A stretch of 64,000 nt of DNA from Candidatus Woesearchaeota archaeon (GTDB lineage Archaea; Nanobdellota; Nanobdellia; Woesearchaeales; GW2011-AR9), in NCBI GenBank assembly GCA_016181265.1, contig JACOZP010000008.1, positions 20,156 through 84,155 on the forward strand, in the 5' to 3' direction. Positions 1,250 to 52,881 of this stretch are shown here, one piece after another (within the stretch, counting starts at the first letter, position 1; the number at the start of each line of letters is the position of its first letter). The translations under genes and the position numbers were made by a program. The notes beneath the pieces are model-generated. The model ran no database searches, had not been told where the DNA came from, and saw only the letters and a program-made list of their open reading frames with translations.

Positions 1250-2287
1250 CTATATGTAACTTCCCAACCCTTTCTGTCCTATCTCTTTCTGCGCTTCTTT
1301 CAGCTTCGCTATCTTCTGCCGCACACGTTCTTCAGCAAAATTGTGTTCTTCGACTAACAGATGTAACAATTTCTTCTCATCAATGTTCTTCCATTCCAAC
1401 ACAAAATCATCCGTCACAGGGATATGTTTGATCGTGTCGAAGACTTCTTTCCAGGGGAGATCAGGATAATGCTTTGCCCATTCTACTTTGGCAAAGAGAC
1501 CAGGAAAATCGGTTCCATATTCTTTCACTAACTTCAACCCCGTCTTCGGACCGATGCCTTTAATTCCCCCGGGATTATAATCCGTGCCAACGAGAATAGC
1601 TAAGGCGATCAGCTGATCGTCGGTCAATTTTAATTCGCGAAGGACATCCTGCAGGAGAATAATTTCCGGCTTGATTTTTTCGTAAGCAAGTGCACCGGGT
1701 TTTTTACGTTTGCCTTCAAGAGAAAGGTTACGGATCAAACGTGGACAGCCAAAGATAAGATTATCATAATCTTGGGATATGGAAGCATAGGCTTTCCCGG
1801 TTTTTACCATGTAAGCTGTCTGTGCTTCGCCTTCAGAAGGTGCTTGAACGATCGGTAGGCCCAATGCTCTCAAGAGCTCTTGTGCATCATGAATCATTTC
1901 GCGTGTCAGGACAGTCGTACGGGCAGCAAATTTCTTCATGCTTTCGACATCACCGCTTTCTTCTGCCTCTTTCAACTGCAACGCTGCTTGCATCTTTACT
2001 TCCTTACGTTTCTCCCATGTCTTCTGCTTGATAGCAGGTGATCTTCCGTCAAAGACAAACACTAACTTCAGTCCTTGTTCCATCAACGCCGTTGTGCGAC
2101 TGAAGAGACCGATCAGATGCGACGTTACGCGACCTTTGCTGTCTGTTAACACAGTGCCATCAGGGCTGCGAATCGTGGTAAGAAATTGATAGAGTAAATT
2201 CATCGAATCGATCGCAAGAATCTTATCTTTAAGATCAGCGATGGAAATTTCTTTCCTGATGACTAACTCTTTGAATTGTAAGCCCAT
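1250..2287 (-). CDS. fen1: flap endonuclease 1 (FEN-1)
   Basis: MGLQFKELV N-terminus. Motifs GLPIVQAPSEGEAQTAYM and VGTDYNPGGIKGIGPKTG (H3TH). C-terminal PIP-box-like QKGLGSYI. Confidence 0.92.
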   Translation of the reverse strand: MGLQFKELVIRKEISIADLKDKILAIDSMNLLYQFLTTIRSPDGTVLTDSKGRVTSHLIGLFSRTTALMEQGLKLVFVFDGRSPAIKQKTWEKRKEVKMQAALQLKEAEESGDVESMKKFAARTTVLTREMIHDAQELLRALGLPIVQAPSEGEAQTAYMVKTGKAYASISQDYDNLIFGCPRLIRNLSLEGKRKKPGALAYEKIKPEIILLQDVLRELKLTDDQLIALAILVGTDYNPGGIKGIGPKTGLKLVKEYGTDFPGLFAKVEWAKHYPDLPWKEVFDTIKHIPVTDDFVLEWKNIDEKKLLHLLVEEHNFAEERVRQKIAKLKEAQKEIGQKGLGSYI

Positions 2288-2364
2288 TCTTGGTTATGAT
2301 GATGAGAAGAATATATAGATATCGGTAGAAAAATGGAGTAATGGCAATGATGGTTCATTCTCGT

Positions 2365-3066
2365 TCATTTTTTCTTCAGTAATTTCTGCAACCGTTTGTA
2401 ATTAGGGGTGAATTTGTTTAACCAAGATAACAGTGATTGTGATAGAAAATATAATGCAGTCCCCACGGCAGGGACAAGGAAGAGAGTGCCAGAGATGGCA
2501 GTTCTGACTGTTTCTTTCTGTTCTTCGGCGCGGAGGACTTCTTGAAGATGCCGTAGTTCTTCATCTCCATGACGAGCAAGGTTCGCTACGAGGAAAAGAA
2601 GAGCGATCTCGCTGCGAATCGCACGACGCAGGAGCCGTTCCACACTTCCTCTAAGATATTTAGACTTCAGGAAAAAAGAAAGTGTCTTTTTACCTTGCAG
2701 GATCAGAAGATAGCGAACCTCTTTCTCTCGCAGTTCTTTGACCCGCTCGATTTTCTTTTCCATAAGCTGATAACTCGCTAGTAAGCTTTGAAAATGAACG
2801 TTACGATGGCCTTCTTTCTCAAGAAGAAGAACATACGCCAGGACTTGAAGATAAAGATTTTCAAAAGCAATGATCTCTTTGATGGACTGTTCGGTGGGCT
2901 TTTGAAATTCTTGATATAACAAGAGGTCGCGTTCGACTTCTGATTCTTTTAAGAACTGTTCAACTGCAGTTAGCCGCGTTTGGTCGAGGACATTTAATTT
3001 GAGAGCGATTCCTTTTAGCTTTTCTTGTAATTCAGAGAGCTGTGCCTGAATCTTCTGAGCATCCAT
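2365..3066 (-). CDS. hypothetical coiled-coil protein with C-terminal hydrophobic segment
   Basis: ORF track. I prefer the Met at 3066 (MDAQKIQ...), which lies just after the upstream stop at 3071-3073, over the overlapping start at 3090. No family recognised. Confidence 0.55.
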   Translation of the reverse strand: MDAQKIQAQLSELQEKLKGIALKLNVLDQTRLTAVEQFLKESEVERDLLLYQEFQKPTEQSIKEIIAFENLYLQVLAYVLLLEKEGHRNVHFQSLLASYQLMEKKIERVKELREKEVRYLLILQGKKTLSFFLKSKYLRGSVERLLRRAIRSEIALLFLVANLARHGDEELRHLQEVLRAEEQKETVRTAISGTLFLVPAVGTALYFLSQSLLSWLNKFTPNYKRLQKLLKKK

Positions 3067-3070
3067 TATT

Positions 3071-4159
3071 TTACTCCACTTTCTTGACAATCACATTTTC
3101 GAACGCACCAGTAGCAATCATTTCCTGTGCTTTCTTGGTGAGATCATGAGAATACAAGAATAAGAGGGGAAGTTTTTTTACCTGCGCTTCCATGTAGGCA
3201 GCGGAGAGATCTTTCTCATCGCAACGAGTTTTCTTTTTTGCTTTGCAAAAATAGGTCATCTTGCCGACGACGGTGGGAACTTTGATGGAAAGATTCACTT
3301 CCGCATTTTTACGGATGATATCCTGTTCTTGGATTGTGATATTTAATTCGCGGAAGAAATGTTCTATCGTAGGAAGGAAAGTATCTGTTTTTGGGGTTAC
3401 TGTTTTCTTGGGTACAGCGGCGTTCATACCTGGTTTTTCGGCAAGGATCGTCTGAGTTTTATCAAGAATCGAAGTAAGAGAAGAGGATTTTTTGATCGAA
3501 CGAGTCTTCTTGACCGATGCAGGAACTACTGACTCAACTACCTGAACGGGAGGAGACGATTCGACAAGGTGTTCTTCCTCAGCTTTCCATTCTACTTCTA
3601 TGGGAGAAAGAGCGTGAGATGGTTCTGGAGAGAGTGTTCTGATGGGCAGCGGTTCTAGAGGAGTAGGCTCTGGAAATGGGGATTGTTCGACGGGGAGAGG
3701 TTCTTCTACTTGCGGTGGGTAAAGGATCTCGCGCACGAGATGATTTGTGGTATCATCCGGGAGCAGATGCCATTTCCAGAATAGTTCGGAACTGTCCGGG
3801 GTCCGTACTTGCAGTGGGACCGCAAAATCTCGAAGAGCACGCAGAGCAACTTTTGAGAGAAGATCTAGATCGGCCTCTCGTAAGACTCCTTCTGTCTTTA
3901 ACCGATCTAAAACTGCCATATCTTTGGGATTGAGATTGCCCGCAGCGAAGTTGTATAACTGTTCTTCTTGCCCAGGGAGATAATAGAGAGGACTGCCCCC
4001 TAACTTCAAACTGGAGATCCGAATCTTCTTCTGTGCAGCGAGGTCGGATAAGTGAGCAGAGGCGATAATGATATCCGTTTTGATGGTCTTGGCAACTTTG
4101 GTAGGAATTGTCGGTCCGGTAACGTTCAAGAATTCGAGAATTTGATCTTGGACAAGCAT
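3071..4159 (-). CDS. hypothetical protein, N-terminal winged-helix-like region, Pro/Glu-rich linker
   Basis: 362-aa ORF. N-terminal ~150 aa look like tandem wHTH (LEFLNVTGPTIPTKVAKTI..., MAVLDRLKTEGVLREADL). A TATA-like TTTAAATA lies 23-30 nt upstream of the ATG. Confidence 0.6.
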   Translation of the reverse strand: MLVQDQILEFLNVTGPTIPTKVAKTIKTDIIIASAHLSDLAAQKKIRISSLKLGGSPLYYLPGQEEQLYNFAAGNLNPKDMAVLDRLKTEGVLREADLDLLSKVALRALRDFAVPLQVRTPDSSELFWKWHLLPDDTTNHLVREILYPPQVEEPLPVEQSPFPEPTPLEPLPIRTLSPEPSHALSPIEVEWKAEEEHLVESSPPVQVVESVVPASVKKTRSIKKSSSLTSILDKTQTILAEKPGMNAAVPKKTVTPKTDTFLPTIEHFFRELNITIQEQDIIRKNAEVNLSIKVPTVVGKMTYFCKAKKKTRCDEKDLSAAYMEAQVKKLPLLFLYSHDLTKKAQEMIATGAFENVIVKKVE

Positions 4160-46686: not shown

Positions 46687-46760
46687 GGGATTATAGTTTA
46701 ATGATAAAATTTCAGGCTCCAGACTTGAAGATCCGGGTTTAATTCCCGGTAATCCCACCA
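46687..46760 (+). tRNA. atypical intron-less tRNA-Trp(CCA) with encoded CCA
   Basis: GGGATTA-TA-GTTT-AATGATA-AAAT-T-TCAGG-CTCCAGA-CTTGA-AGAT-CCGGG-TTTAATT-CCCGG-TAATCCC-A-CCA. The cloverleaf is complete, but the D-loop lacks GG and the T-loop is TTTAATT rather than TTCRAAT. Confidence 0.7.
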
Positions 46761-48550: not shown

Positions 48551-48964
48551 TTGATGAATATTTTCCTTTGTTGCAGCAAACATTTTTACGATAAAATCCC
48601 ACCAATTAAAGAAACGTTAGAGAAAAAAGGACATAACATCACATTGCCAAATAGTTATGATGAGCCGTTTAAAGAGGATGAAGTGAGAAGACTCGGTGAA
48701 AAAGAACATCAAGAATGGAAAGCAATGATGATTAGGTTACAAGAGACAAAGATTAAAGCGAATGATGCAATCTTAGTTCTTAATTTTGAGAAGAAAGGAA
48801 TGGCGAATTATGTAGGTGGGGCGACATTCTTAGAAATGTTCAAAGCGTTTGAATTAGGAAAGAAAATATTCTTGTATAATCCCATTCCAGAATCAATCCT
48901 GACGGATGAGATCAAAGGATTTGGACCGATTGTGATCGGAGGGAATTTGAGTAACGTAAACTGA
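48551..48964 (+). CDS. nucleoside 2-deoxyribosyltransferase-like (Rossmann-like) protein
   Basis: NIFLCCS...IKANDAILVLNFEKKGMANYVGGATFLEMFKAFELGKKIFLYN follows the pattern of the NDT/DUF4406-type fold. Starts 1 nt after the rtcA stop. Confidence 0.45.
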   Translation: MMNIFLCCSKHFYDKIPPIKETLEKKGHNITLPNSYDEPFKEDEVRRLGEKEHQEWKAMMIRLQETKIKANDAILVLNFEKKGMANYVGGATFLEMFKAFELGKKIFLYNPIPESILTDEIKGFGPIVIGGNLSNVN

Positions 48965-49457: not shown

Positions 49458-50297
49458 TTATGTGAGTGATTCTAAAACTTTCAATCGATCTCGAGCATCA
49501 ATACTTTGTCCCCACAAATGCCAAAATACTTTTTGGGTCCAAGCTATCCATGCTTGGTCTTTAATGAGGTAAAATAAGAATGATTTCTCTTTGACTTCAC
49601 GACATAATTGGGGACTCATCACTTCTTTGATGGACATCAGAGTGTCGTCAACAAGAACCGCGCGCAAAGGCTGTTCGCAGTGTCTAATTTCGATGGCATC
49701 CCAACCGCAGCGCAGATTAAGGGAGAGCATATCGACAGTATTCTTATGAGAAGTAAGATCGACGCGAGTCAATATTTTGATCCTGACTTTTTTGGCCGCT
49801 AACATTTCAATAACTGCACGCATGTCTGGTCCTAATTCCATCCAGGAAAGATTCCCTGAAAAGAAAAGAACCTGTTGTTGTGCGTTTGCCAACATGGTAT
49901 CATACCGTATCGGTTCAGGCGTTAAGAATTCCTGAGATTCTAAGAAAAGCTGGCGCTTATCTTCATCGACGAATTGATACAGATCAAATGGAGAGAAATC
50001 TTCCTTGCGTCTTCCCTGGACGAGCCTAGTGAATAGTCTCTCTTGATATGCACTTCCTTTTGTTCTCTCTAACGCATTCCAATACACAACCTTTAACGCT
50101 CCTCTGCTCCCTTCCCGAAAGATTCTCGTCGAGATCAAGCCAGTTTCTTGTGCGATCAGTTCGATATAGCGGTCAGCAGTACGCCAGTTCTTTTGGATAG
50201 ACTGAGCAACTTCTTGAACGGTTCTCGGTTTCTGTTGGATGAGCTGAAGGATACTATCTTTTATCTCTTTTTGCACCAAAGTACAACACCACGACAA
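49458..50297 (-). CDS. TrmB-like transcriptional regulator (wHTH + C-terminal sensor-like domain)
   Basis: ILQLIQQKPRTVQEVAQSIQKNWRTADRYIELIAQETGLI wHTH. The ~180-aa C-terminal domain resembles the PLD-like effector domain of the TrmB family. Divergent from the 50347 cassette. Confidence 0.6.
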   Translation of the reverse strand: MSWCCTLVQKEIKDSILQLIQQKPRTVQEVAQSIQKNWRTADRYIELIAQETGLISTRIFREGSRGALKVVYWNALERTKGSAYQERLFTRLVQGRRKEDFSPFDLYQFVDEDKRQLFLESQEFLTPEPIRYDTMLANAQQQVLFFSGNLSWMELGPDMRAVIEMLAAKKVRIKILTRVDLTSHKNTVDMLSLNLRCGWDAIEIRHCEQPLRAVLVDDTLMSIKEVMSPQLCREVKEKSFLFYLIKDQAWIAWTQKVFWHLWGQSIDARDRLKVLESLT

Positions 50298-50346
50298 TTT
50301 TTTTGAGAGTAATGGCTATCTTTTCTACAAGTATATATGTATTCTG

Positions 50347-50877
50347 ATGGAGAAATATATACTCACGGGAGGGCCAGGAACTGGAAAAACAACACTTCTG
50401 AGAGAATTGGGAAGATTAGGGTACGAGGTAATTCCCGAAGCAGCGCGAGGAATTATTGCGGAGGAAATGAATAAAGAAAAAGCAGTTCTTCCTTGGACAG
50501 ACTTAGAGAACTTCCAGAGACTGGTCATCAAACGACAATTAGAGTTAGAAAAAGGATCCAATGGGAGGAGACAATTCCTTGACCGTTCGCTTGTTGATTC
50601 TATTGCTTACTGTGAGCAGGGAGGGATCCCTCCGCCAGAAAATATGTATTCTTTGATCAGTCAAGCCCGCTATACAAGAGTATTCTTTCTCGAACAACTT
50701 CCGACTTACGTTCAAGATAGAGAACGGAAAGAAGACAAAACAGCAGCAGAATGGATCCACAAAAGATTATACGAGGTCTATGATCGCTTTGGTTTTGAGA
50801 TCACAAGACTCCCGCCTTCTGGAATTGATAGACGTGTAGAGATGATCATTGCTGAAATAGGAGATACAAAGAGGTGA
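50347..50877 (+). CDS. P-loop NTPase/kinase of the AAA_28 / NadR-ribosylnicotinamide-kinase-like type
   Basis: MEKYILTGGPGTGKTTLLRELGRLGYEVIPEAAR Walker A plus FLDRS (Walker B-like). 176 aa. Confidence 0.7.
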   Translation: MEKYILTGGPGTGKTTLLRELGRLGYEVIPEAARGIIAEEMNKEKAVLPWTDLENFQRLVIKRQLELEKGSNGRRQFLDRSLVDSIAYCEQGGIPPPENMYSLISQARYTRVFFLEQLPTYVQDRERKEDKTAAEWIHKRLYEVYDRFGFEITRLPPSGIDRRVEMIIAEIGDTKR

Positions 50878-50881
50878 GATA

Positions 50882-51685
50882 ATGGACTTAGAACTGCTGA
50901 CGTTTGCGGAGACGTTTTATGTAAGCAAGGGGTATAAAAAGATAGAAGTTCCTTGGACTGTTGACCAGGATGTATTAGATATTACCTTACCACTGGGGAG
51001 AATCGGCGCTGACCTTTTTGGAAAGCTATTAGTAGGATCAGCCGAACAATCATTTCTCCAACTCATCAAAGAGAAGAAACTTTCCCCAGGAAAATATGTT
51101 GCTACTACCCCTTGTTTTCGTGACGACCCGGTTGATGATCTTCATCAGAAATATTTTATGAAGACGGAACTTATTGATTTTTCTGTCGAAGAAAGAGAGG
51201 TAGCAGAGCGATTAGAACAGGTGATGAGAGATGCATTAGAATTTTTTAATTTCTTTCTTCCAATTCGAAAAAAACAGACAGATATGGGGTATGATATTGT
51301 CGATGATAAACGGGAGATAGAACTGGGTTCATATGGAGTTCGGAGCCATGCTTTTTCGGAAGGTCATCGGGTTACGTGGATTTATGGAACTGGAATAGCT
51401 CTTCCCAGATTGACGGATGTAACAGAAAGTGTAAAGAAAAAAGGATATCACGAGATGATTATCCCCAAAGCGCCAGCTGGGTCATTTCTGAAAATTGCTG
51501 AGGAATTTAGAGAGGCGAGAGATGCTTATATGAATCATAATCCAATTATGCTATTAGTCGAACTAGCAGATATTTATGGCGCAATGGAATTATTTCTAGA
51601 GAAGCATTCCCCAGAAATCAGCATGGAAGACGTCCGAAGATTACAGGAAGTGACAAGGAGGGCATTTCAGAATGGTCGACGATAG
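50882..51685 (+). CDS. minimal class II aaRS-like (SerRS-type) catalytic core fused to a MazG-like NTP pyrophosphohydrolase domain
   Basis: TPCFRDDPVDDLHQKYFMKTELIDF (motif 2-like, compare SerRS cFRxE...HQFxKvE). WIYGTGIALPRL (motif 3-like). C-terminal KIAEEFREARDA...LLVELADIYGAMELFLEKH (MazG/HisE EExxE...ExxD pattern). Confidence 0.55.
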   Translation: MDLELLTFAETFYVSKGYKKIEVPWTVDQDVLDITLPLGRIGADLFGKLLVGSAEQSFLQLIKEKKLSPGKYVATTPCFRDDPVDDLHQKYFMKTELIDFSVEEREVAERLEQVMRDALEFFNFFLPIRKKQTDMGYDIVDDKREIELGSYGVRSHAFSEGHRVTWIYGTGIALPRLTDVTESVKKKGYHEMIIPKAPAGSFLKIAEEFREARDAYMNHNPIMLLVELADIYGAMELFLEKHSPEISMEDVRRLQEVTRRAFQNGRR

Positions 51686-52355
51686 AAGGTTATATTTCGT
51701 TCCGGTGCGAGAAGTATGCAATGCCGATTGTACTTTTTGTTATATGAATGAGAAAGCGGTCGATGAACAAAAACCACAGTTCATTCCGCTTGAAAAGCTG
51801 ATAGGATGCGTTGCTTCTCTTCAGGGGAAATTCAATCAAGTGGAGATCACGGGAGGGGGTGAGCCAACTCTCCATCCTAAGCTGCCTGAGATTCTGAGAT
51901 TATTTGAAAATACATACCGGAAAATGTATACTAATGGTTTCCATCTGAGAAATCTGCCGCCTTTTGAAGAAGTAAATATTTCAAGAGTGCATTGGGATTC
52001 AGTAATTAATAACCAGTATTACCGATCAAGATCACAAAATGAACTTAGTGTAGCGATAGATCATTATAGGGGGATTGCAGAGAGAATAAGAATCCAAACC
52101 ATCCTTCTGCGCGGAGCAATTGATTCTCGCGAAAAATTGCTCGATTTTGTAACACGCTATGAAGAGAAAGTTGATGTTTTTATGTTTAGGACGTTGTTTC
52201 CAAAATGTTCTTTGGAGAAAGCAAAAATGGTGACGTATGAAGAAGTCTTTGTAAAACATCCGAAAGTAGTCTTTGACAAGACGTTGGATGATTATTCCAG
52301 GCCCCTTTATTTTATCGGGACTGATTGTAATGTGCATGAAACGTTTCAGTTTTAA
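51672..52355 (+). CDS. small radical SAM enzyme (227 aa), subfamily unassigned
   Basis: VPVREVCNADCTFCYM (CxxxCxxC) at residues 17-24 and EITGGGEPTLHP. 14-nt overlap with the upstream gene. Confidence 0.8.
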   Translation: MVDDRRLYFVPVREVCNADCTFCYMNEKAVDEQKPQFIPLEKLIGCVASLQGKFNQVEITGGGEPTLHPKLPEILRLFENTYRKMYTNGFHLRNLPPFEEVNISRVHWDSVINNQYYRSRSQNELSVAIDHYRGIAERIRIQTILLRGAIDSREKLLDFVTRYEEKVDVFMFRTLFPKCSLEKAKMVTYEEVFVKHPKVVFDKTLDDYSRPLYFIGTDCNVHETFQF

Positions 52356-52416
52356 TATCAATGGGTAACACAAAGAATTTATAGTTCAGCCACCCGTAAG
52401 ATATAAAGTGTTTATC

Positions 52417-52881
52417 ATGAAACTGACTAGTCCTGCTTTTGAAGCGAATGGCGAGATTCCTAGTAAATACACGTGTGATGGGAGTAATATTAGTATTCCT
52501 TTGACATTTGAAGACGTGCCTAAAAACGCGAAGAGTCTCGTTTTAATTATGGATGATCCGGATATTCCTGAAGTGGCGAAGAGGAATTTTAATATTGATG
52601 TGTGGGATCATTGGATTGTTTTTAATATTCCGGCAGAAACAACAGAAATTCCAGAAGGAAAGATGCGGGCGGGCGTTCTGGGAAAGAATACGCGCGGCAA
52701 TAATACCTATGGCGGACCTTGCCCGCCGGATCGGGAGCACCGCTATTTCTTCAAGCTCTATGCACTTGATACGATGCTTAACTTAAAAGAAGGAGCGACG
52801 AAGAAAGACGTGGAGATGGCGATGGAAGGACATATTGTTGCGAGAGCGGAATTGATGGGACGATATGAGAGGAAGAAATAA
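52417..52881 (+). CDS. PEBP-family protein (YbhB/YbcL-like)
   Basis: LIMDDPDIP, HWIVFNIP and GPCPPDREHRYFFKLYALD motifs. Confidence 0.88.
   Translation: MKLTSPAFEANGEIPSKYTCDGSNISIPLTFEDVPKNAKSLVLIMDDPDIPEVAKRNFNIDVWDHWIVFNIPAETTEIPEGKMRAGVLGKNTRGNNTYGGPCPPDREHRYFFKLYALDTMLNLKEGATKKDVEMAMEGHIVARAELMGRYERKK

Follow-up and report, generated by a model that had tools for sequence, protein, structure and literature searches.

We describe a small gene cassette in a 64,000-nt stretch of a Candidatus Woesearchaeota archaeon genome (contig JACOZP010000008.1, assembly GCA_016181265.1), which as a whole is called the window below. Three genes on the forward strand encode a P-loop protein of the AAA_28 family, a fusion of a minimal catalytic core related to seryl-tRNA synthetase (SerRS) with a MazG/HisE-like domain, and a minimal radical S-adenosylmethionine (SAM) enzyme (rSAM); a winged helix-turn-helix (wHTH) regulator is transcribed divergently upstream. 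The cassette is a real operon of functionally linked genes. We suggest that it is a variant of a modular operon under a nucleotide-type regulator, and that it processes a pyrimidine nucleotide, most likely cytidine or deoxycytidine; together with the steps proposed below, we give this reading an even chance of being right. The genes themselves are genuine: homologues of every one are conserved, and other genomes show the tight coupling again, in changed gene orders. The open reading frames (ORFs) of an earlier, preliminary description of this DNA were reproduced exactly, including the 4-nt gap (50878-50881) between the AAA_28 gene and the fusion gene (50882-51685, +, 267 aa) and the 14-nt overlap (51672-51685) between the fusion gene and the rSAM gene, and the motifs quoted there (GGPGTGKTT in the AAA_28 protein, CNADCTFC and GGGEP in the rSAM) are all present in the translations.

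A role directed at nucleotides had been proposed from the letters of this DNA, and it is now strongly backed by the partners and fusions found in related loci: dCTP-deaminase-like (DCD) proteins, dCMP deaminase, thymidylate-kinase-like (TMPK-like) proteins, CYTH, and NrdR and Nudix regulators. Relatives of the window rSAM (29% identity, E 2e-20) occur in a sister operon and are never found beside the SerRS-like/MazG-like unit, here called the putative ligase. A DCD gene (PF22769, E 1.6e-36) abuts the rSAM gene downstream in about 45 metagenome loci, about 30 of which also have a TMPK-like gene abutting it upstream. Where the flanks allow, archaeal sister loci carry the same divergent regulator (about 14 loci), AAA_28 (about 9) and in some cases CYTH; the order in DPANN genomes is divergent wHTH regulator, AAA_28, sometimes CYTH, TMPK-like P-loop protein, rSAM and DCD, with abutting or overlapping genes. 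Fusions in further rSAM members join the enzyme to a dCMP deaminase (PDB 2hvv, E 4e-8) or to a P-loop kinase, and a bacterial example combines an NrtR-like regulator, a kinase, the rSAM and two DCD genes. The deaminase partners and the SerRS-like/MazG-like partner of the rSAM are mutually exclusive, and it is this pattern which leads us to place the enzyme on a cytidine-type nucleotide. We found no published description of the sister operon. A domain resembling nucleoside diphosphate kinase (NDK), seen by eye at the C-terminus of 398-aa rSAM homologues, has a match at E 0.04 as its sole support and is kept as tentative.

The regulators upstream are of a nucleotide type, being NrdR, a wHTH-Nudix protein, or a wHTH protein with a possible PLD-like domain. 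NrdR stands divergently upstream in three loci of the Candidate Phyla Radiation (CPR; L001, L016 and L023, where L-numbers denote individual homologous loci compared with the window cassette), and a wHTH-Nudix protein takes this position in six Saccharibacteria loci. The regulator of the window is divergently upstream of the cassette in nine archaeal loci, and likewise upstream of sister-operon loci that have no ligase. A Pfam census of 300 immediate neighbours, from which the 25 commonest families were listed, gave Radical_SAM, NUDIX, AAA_28, Metallophos, NrdR, DnaE, uridine kinase (PRK), CYTH and MazG as the commonest cellular families; NrdD was found as well.

Comparison of the loci reveals that the universal unit is the SerRS-like core with the MazG-like domain, while the three-gene trio is not a conserved unit. 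The fusion gene has more than 1,500 relatives, and the pair is present in 279 GenBank phage records (including rV5-like E. coli, Acinetobacter, Cronobacter, Pectobacterium and Caulobacter phages), in 172 IMG/VR contigs, in giant viruses, in CPR bacteria and in DPANN archaea. Among about 110 loci, 23 have the two modules fused, 48 have them as adjacent genes led by the mazG-like one and 33 as adjacent genes led by the SerRS-like one; this occurrence as a fusion or as neighbours in either order speaks strongly for joint action as a single enzyme. The window-family rSAM lies immediately next to the ligase in 16 loci (DPANN, Woesebacteria and WWE3), downstream or upstream of it, and accompanies it only in DPANN and some CPR. 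Synteny of the trio in other genomes, named as a check in the preliminary description, thus holds in part: the linkage extends across Nanoarchaeia and other DPANN, which are the closest relatives of the cassette, to Woesebacteria and WWE3, but AAA_28 is limited to a narrow clade of close relatives and the rSAM to about 10% of ligase loci. In viral contigs the rSAM profile found generic radical SAM proteins only (up to 31% identity in extended matches, up to 38% over cluster-motif fragments of about 55 residues), and we thus regard the family as cellular. Two unrelated rSAM proteins (about 305-311 aa, with CDMGCKYC and CVNSCKFC) are encoded in viral contigs, 2-3 kb downstream of the ligase, a hint of repeated recruitment of rSAM partners.

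Coupling is equally tight in relatives, with a 0-nt gap and a 14-nt overlap in L003, no gap in L006, and the rSAM gene placed upstream in L001 and L016. Five proteins are fusions of the rSAM with a C-terminal MazG-like domain of the same subfamily (E 1e-31 to 5e-35), and locus L275 has a fusion of this kind that overlaps by 4 nt with a downstream gene for a separate SerRS-like core. The three modules are thus combined differently from locus to locus, either as a SerRS-like/MazG-like fusion plus rSAM or as an rSAM/MazG-like fusion plus SerRS-like core. The P-loop protein upstream in L275 is not detectably AAA_28. If the genes were neighbours merely by chance or through inherited synteny, with no shared function, one would understand why AAA_28 and a downstream PEBP-family gene are seen in close relatives only. 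However, translational coupling is kept across archaea and bacteria despite changed gene order, and three kinds of fusion link the modules; we consider this explanation highly improbable overall, and effectively refuted for the SerRS-like, MazG-like and rSAM modules.

As a single sequence, the fusion protein has only sub-threshold matches in Pfam, NCBIfam and the PDB, and none in PADLOC. A family profile and a model of the SerRS-like core were built from an alignment of 35 sequences. The profile matched ten PDB chains, all ten of them SerRS (best E 6e-7), and the AlphaFold2 (AF2) model (pLDDT 94) gave the catalytic cores of PylRS, SerRS and PheRS as top Foldseek matches (E ~1e-9). The motifs GYxxIEVPW (motif 1), TPCFRDE (motif 2), GTGxAxPR (motif 3) and SAEQ (SxE) are invariant or nearly so and align with their equivalents in SerRS of the same genomes and in PDB SerRS, with which the core also shares the F-x-K-x-E strand and the general G-T-x-x-A-x-x-R form of motif 3. 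Fully invariant are SxE, R80 of motif 2, F92/K94/E96, E147/S150 and T170...R176. The serine-binding motif of SerRS is TxE (bioRxiv 10.1101/586255), of which SxE is, judging from the alignment, a version. Unlike SerRS, the protein (core of about 180 aa) begins at the catalytic core, so that the N-terminal coiled-coil tRNA-binding arm is absent; the motif-2 loop is shorter by about 7 residues, a SerRS insertion of about 25 residues before motif 3 is deleted, and the score against the full-length SerRS model TIGR00414 is 14.8 bits for a cut-off of 301.65. The stripped-down class II aminoacyl-tRNA synthetase (aaRS) core recognised previously is thus borne out by profile and fold, and the alignments indicate that the residues used by SerRS for making seryl-adenylate are retained, whereas the tRNA-binding elements are lost.

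The core also matches phrog_4806 (E 1.2e-41), which is labelled 'histidyl tRNA synthetase'. Since the family profile matches SerRS only, this label looks misnamed where it is used in RefSeq rV5-like phages. A reading as HisZ/HisE of histidine biosynthesis, prompted by the phage annotation, was rejected because the profile finds SerRS only and the ATP-binding arginines are intact, and a logic like that of EpmA/EpmB (an rSAM aminomutase with an aaRS paralogue) was rejected since the rSAM here, a minimal core, does not match lysine 2,3-aminomutase. Loss of tRNA-binding parts is also a feature of the aaRS paralogues AsnA and the aa:CP (amino acid:carrier protein) ligases, and a 2022 review of such paralogues gives SerRS2, SLIMP and the aa:CP ligases for SerRS, the present core not being among them (PMC9437257). 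In contrast to the aa:CP ligases, the constant partner here is the MazG/HisE-like domain and not a carrier protein; no carrier-protein family is among the 25 commonest Pfam families of the neighbour census.

Could the core nonetheless act on RNA, as a minimal seryl-tRNA synthetase or a factor for tRNA 3'-end repair or charging, in a cassette related to translation or RNA repair? Its active site is of the SerRS type, and there are suggestive neighbours: in Escherichia phage UPEC06, which is rV5-like, the mazG-like and SerRS-like genes come after, and lie 4 kb from, genes for a CCA-adding enzyme and a 375-aa nucleotidyltransferase (L116, 1-5835); PTH2, Thg1, MetRS and an RNA ligase are found beside viral copies; RtcA is encoded 2 kb upstream in the window; and RtcB and an RNA ligase lie beside one rSAM homologue. 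A canonical, full-length SerRS gene also occurs about 1-6 kb from the cassette or the sister operon in six loci of different lineages, which could mean that synteny was inherited, that the SerRS-like core arose from this gene, or that the two are linked in function, for example through supply of seryl-adenylate, as for AbmK (see below). Against a role on RNA we count the missing arm, the shortened loop and the deleted insertion, and also that the obligate partner is a domain of the NTP (nucleoside triphosphate)-pyrophosphatase type with intact acidic metal-binding residues, and that the genomes concerned keep a full SerRS. We thus believe that this explanation is improbable.

The MazG-like domain, comprising the last 82 residues of the fusion, forms three helices in the AF2 model. 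Its profile matches HisE (1yvw, E 5e-3) and the MazG-like protein SSO3215 (1vmg, E 0.013), while PF01503 matches 18 and PF03819 5 of 25 family members. The acidic motif EExxE...ExxD, as in MazG, HisE and the dimeric dUTPases/dCTPases, is invariant (E24, E25, E28, E44 and D47 in domain numbering). The earlier call of a MazG/HisE-type domain is supported by the family profile, the relatives and the acidic motif. Unlike MazG and HisE, it belongs to a subfamily of its own, which matches the unknown-function family phrog_6408 (E 1.7e-26), is marked by an N-terminal GYH..IPK motif and a C-terminal RAF.NGRR tail, and is always tied to the SerRS-like core or the rSAM. A MazG-like enzyme is paired with a ligase in the phage PurZ-MazZ system, and in phages the present domain is likewise encoded by a small gene beside the ligase gene.

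The AAA_28 protein matches PF13521 over residues 3-163 of 176 (E 3.4e-38, 131.9 bits for a gathering score of 27), which agrees with its first assignment as a P-loop protein like NadR and ribosylnicotinamide kinase. Its match to PDB NadR (8x7f) is weak (E 0.065, residues 6-163); among PHROG families it matches thymidylate kinase (E 9e-10) and a NadR-like nicotinamide mononucleotide adenylyltransferase (NMNAT; E 6e-9). In contrast to NadR, it has no helix-turn-helix or NMNAT domain, and a CYTH domain is fused or adjacent in relatives instead. The AAA_28 proteins of L010, L011 and L012 are longer (351-374 aa), with an extra C-terminal domain; CYTH (PF01928, E 5e-14) was found in two members of the neighbour census, which were not resolved per locus, and was not detected in the L012 fusion at E<=0.01.

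The rSAM matches PF04055 at E 3.5e-8 (34.2 bits, cut-off 29.5), and its only conserved cysteines are C16, C20 and C23. For the AF2 model (pLDDT 94), the best Foldseek match is MoaA (1tv7, E 1.6e-9, template-modelling score TMq 0.67-0.71), with viperin (6q2q, 5vsm and 7n7i, TMq 0.65-0.71) also among the best, at 12-15% sequence identity. All NCBIfam scores are far below the cut-offs: 32.7 for 131 with NrdG2, 15.7 for 260 with QueE, 34.8 for 284 (TIGR02666) and 32.6 for 325 (TIGR02668) with the MoaA models, and 32.1 for 180 with viperin (NF038283), where residues 13-94 alone are matched; PflA is a low-ranked fold match only. The enzyme does not fall into NrdG, QueE or PflA, the housekeeping families that the preliminary description had singled out as a danger to its proposal; from the model, it belongs to a small uncharacterised family that is MoaA/viperin-like in fold and counts 49 clusters at E<=1e-30 among 1.8 billion representatives. 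With MoaA it shares the CN..C..C motif and an N.S.(D/R) strand, yet it has no second, C-terminal Fe-S cluster and no molybdopterin genes are near the cassette. MoaA and viperin both use NTPs.

The likeness to viperin is also one of gene partners, and it brings in an alternative, namely that the cassette is a viperin-type antiviral or anti-host system, in which kinases build an NTP, the rSAM converts it to a chain terminator like the 3'-deoxy-3',4'-didehydro-NTP (ddhNTP) of viperin, and MazG-like or deaminase partners tune or empty the pools. The prokaryotic viperin (pVip) models of PADLOC are the only defence models matched (E 7e-10 for the window rSAM, down to 5e-14 for relatives); the CN..C.FC and GGGEP motifs, the partial-barrel fold and the link to a P-loop nucleotide kinase are shared, and the TMPK-family kinase directly upstream of the rSAM in sister operons mirrors CMPK2-viperin and kinase-associated pVips, which reinforces the viperin-plus-kinase analogy drawn at the outset. 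dCTP deaminases, moreover, are known defence effectors. Viperin partner genes have been described, including fusions to a 'triphosphatase or cyclase domain' (bioRxiv 10.1101/2023.09.13.557418), and the kinase, together with CYTH nearby, matches these partners in the sister operons. Nevertheless, the rSAM is 227 aa long compared with about 280-300 aa for viperin, its match to the viperin model covers the N-terminal third with the viperin C-terminal part unmatched, and its SerRS-like/MazG-like, DCD and dCMP deaminase partners are not described for viperins. The context is also not one of defence. No defence island was found: around the cassette lie ordinary housekeeping genes of archaea (RtcA, EF-1beta, PEBP, MsrB, a MOSC protein and Trm1). 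The location remains stable among DPANN despite divergent sequences (regulator identity 32-70%), and the SerRS-like/MazG-like half is itself carried by phages and giant viruses. A PADLOC census of 150 neighbours showed no enrichment of defence genes, finding the rSAM itself, one restriction-modification pair and further single matches to other type II methyltransferase/IIG and UvrD-helicase (GajB) models; in individually inspected loci, the restriction pair in L001/L002 holds the only defence genes called (in L001, an EcoRI-type endonuclease together with a D12 methyltransferase at 1707-3553, at a distance of 1.7 kb from the NrdR gene facing the Woesebacteria cassette). The option of antiviral defence raised in the preliminary description accordingly finds no support, and we consider it unlikely.

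A further alternative is housekeeping: the supply or sanitation of deoxypyrimidines in minimal metabolisms, either by providing dUMP/dCMP for thymidylate or by radical deoxygenation that replaces part of ribonucleotide reduction. This would suit the NrdR genes, regulators of ribonucleotide reductase (RNR) genes, which are divergent beside the cassette in L001, L016 and L023, and the DCD and TMPK-like genes that flank the rSAM in sister operons. It would also suit ThyA with DHFR, uridine kinase and NDK beside L006, DnaE directly upstream in L027 and L030, the viral neighbours ThyA, ThyX, DHFR, dCMP deaminase and RNR, and a distribution over CPR, DPANN and viruses, which fits dependence on salvage. 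On the other hand, it leaves the serine-activating enzyme without a role, stoichiometric use of SAM would be costly for bulk nucleotide supply, L006 already has ThyA and DHFR adjacent, and the rarity of the rSAM family is unexpected for an essential route. We regard it as rather unlikely.

Based on these findings, we propose that the cassette processes a cytidine-type nucleotide in four steps. The AAA_28 kinase would help to supply the phosphorylated nucleotide, and the rSAM, to judge from its fold and partners, would alter the nucleoside triphosphate by means of a 5'-deoxyadenosyl radical. The MazG/HisE-like domain, true to its family, could then cleave the NTP, modified or not, to the monophosphate and pyrophosphate. 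The SerRS-derived core, with its conserved active site, would form seryl-adenylate without tRNA and hand the seryl group to a small acceptor. Our best guess for this acceptor is a nucleotide amine such as the exocyclic N4 of cytosine, and we speculate that all the alternative partners of the rSAM target this amine, which sister clades would deaminate and the cassette clade acylate. On this view the SerRS-like and MazG-like modules are a self-contained enzyme of two parts, which viruses and ultra-small symbionts also employ by itself. Its product could be a new seryl nucleotide, for instance N4-seryl-(deoxy)cytidine monophosphate, arising by pyrophosphate release from a dCTP/CTP-type substrate and transfer from seryl-adenylate, or a radical-modified version where the rSAM is present; we put this product forward tentatively and think it doubtful. 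A still bolder idea is that the rSAM family may remove oxygen or water from CTP by radical chemistry and so supply the synthesis of deoxypyrimidines, with control of the NrdR type. A precedent for the combination is the albomycin pathway, in which one cytosine nucleoside is acted on by a deoxycytidine-kinase homologue, an enzyme of the aaRS type using seryl-adenylate, and an rSAM (PMC9032320); as with AbmF and AbmK there, the SerRS-like core of the cassette is paired with an rSAM and a protein of the nucleoside-kinase type.

Several observations weigh against this proposal. The serine acceptor is speculative, and the chemistry of every component of the cassette is predicted from sequence rather than taken from biochemistry. 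Most SerRS-like/MazG-like loci have no rSAM, and in L010, a close relative, the regulator, AAA_28 and ligase are present without it; the ligase thus does not need the rSAM. The rSAM homologues L118 and L119 have neither partner, one of them standing among RNA-repair genes (RtcB and RNA ligase), and some viral neighbours of the ligase belong to translation or RNA repair (PTH2, Thg1, MetRS and the CCA-adding enzyme). The MazG-like C-domain of the window itself has no Pfam match, and is matched by the family profile and by relatives only. MoaA, viperin, NrdG and a tungsten-cofactor maturase are all at equal sequence distance from the rSAM, whose substrate class therefore rests on gene context.

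As stated in the preliminary description, no system of this composition appears to have been described; our search of the literature found none. The components come from known superfamilies and the kinase-plus-rSAM logic resembles that of viperin systems, and there is a real chance of new chemistry. If our reading is correct, it gives a function to a gene pair present in hundreds of cultured phages, among them phages of E. coli, Acinetobacter, Cronobacter, Pectobacterium and Caulobacter; the two genes now go under the names 'hypothetical', 'histidyl tRNA synthetase' or 'seryl-tRNA synthetase'. It would further mean that an aaRS catalytic core has a new use independent of tRNA, and that a small rSAM family, related to viperin and MoaA in fold, acts on cytidine nucleotides in the smallest known cells. 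Should the seryl nucleotide exist, it would represent a new class of nucleotide metabolite common to large phages, giant viruses, CPR and DPANN. Because the carriers include phages of E. coli K-12, the system is directly testable.

Table 1. Positions of the cassette features in the window and of related features in compared loci.
Feature	Locus	Position	Strand	Details
Divergent wHTH regulator	window	49458..50297	-	ORF, 279 aa as listed; likelier 272 aa
Divergent intergenic promoter/operator region	window	50298..50346	.	sequence
AAA_28 P-loop protein, nucleoside/nucleotide-kinase-like	window	50347..50877	+	176 aa; PF13521
SerRS-derived minimal class II aaRS core	window	50882..51421	+	residues 1-180 of the 267-aa fusion
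HisE/MazG-like all-alpha NTP-pyrophosphatase-type domain	window	51437..51685	+	residues 186-267 of the fusion and stop codon
Minimal single-cluster radical SAM enzyme	window	51672..52355	+	227 aa; PF04055
DPANN sister operon	L223	2578-6249		
DPANN sister operon	L224	3030-6229		
DPANN sister operon	L259	2198-6222		
DPANN sister operon	L220	3565-7361		
DPANN sister operon	L241	2605-6220		
DPANN sister operon	L210	2387-6226		
Nearby canonical SerRS gene	L001	11810-12801		
Nearby canonical SerRS gene	L006	8960-10285		
Nearby canonical SerRS gene	L015	5798-7090		
Nearby canonical SerRS gene	L210	6482-7054		
Nearby canonical SerRS gene	L241	7721-8476		
Nearby canonical SerRS gene	L211	3946-4668		
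Unrelated rSAM in viral contig	L081, L090, L092, L094, L096, L107			~1.7-2.1 kb downstream of fused ligase
Unrelated rSAM in viral contig	L080	9089-10024		

The regulator consists of a generic N-terminal wHTH and a conserved C-terminal domain. Its profile (nine homologues) matches the wHTH protein PH1932 (ArsR/PH1932-type, E 1.4e-3), and HTH_5 is matched in four of the nine. The label 'TrmB-like' given to it previously is weakly supported, as the TrmB family PF01978 matches one of the nine at E 0.14, outside family membership, and a wHTH of the ArsR/PH1932 type fits better. Matches to PLDc_2 in three of the nine (E 0.016) suggest that the C-terminal domain may be PLD-like. On the identical public contig, the gene caller starts the regulator 7 codons downstream of the TTG codon, giving 272 aa, and the homologues begin at the same downstream start; the true start is thus probably near 50276. 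The 49-bp divergent spacer given in the preliminary description is correct for the TTG start, but grows to about 70 nt with the likelier one. No inverted repeat was found in the divergent spacer.

A few further observations concern the compared loci and the rest of the window. In two bacterial loci that are unrelated (L008, 6540-7088, and L023, 8820-9416), the gene directly downstream of the SerRS-like one encodes a conserved protein of roughly 185 aa (motif HYFGLGFIQ...LPPIV...EVH.HRY), for which Pfam gives no match. In a giant virus with a fused ligase (L005), the large subunit of ribonucleotide reductase (1-2510) contains two inteins, and DNA polymerase X and PolB are encoded within 6 kb. 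A 137-aa ORF between RtcA and EF-1beta in the window (48551-48964) is called as a 136-aa gene on the identical public contig; its likeness to nucleoside deoxyribosyltransferases, noticed by eye, was dropped as it has no Pfam or PDB match. The sole tRNA gene of the window is a tRNA-Trp (CCA) at 46687-46760. The PEBP-family gene mentioned above (PF01161, E 2e-44; 52408-52881) begins 52 nt past the rSAM gene on the same strand and may be co-transcribed with the cassette; its position is kept in the close relatives L003 and L011.

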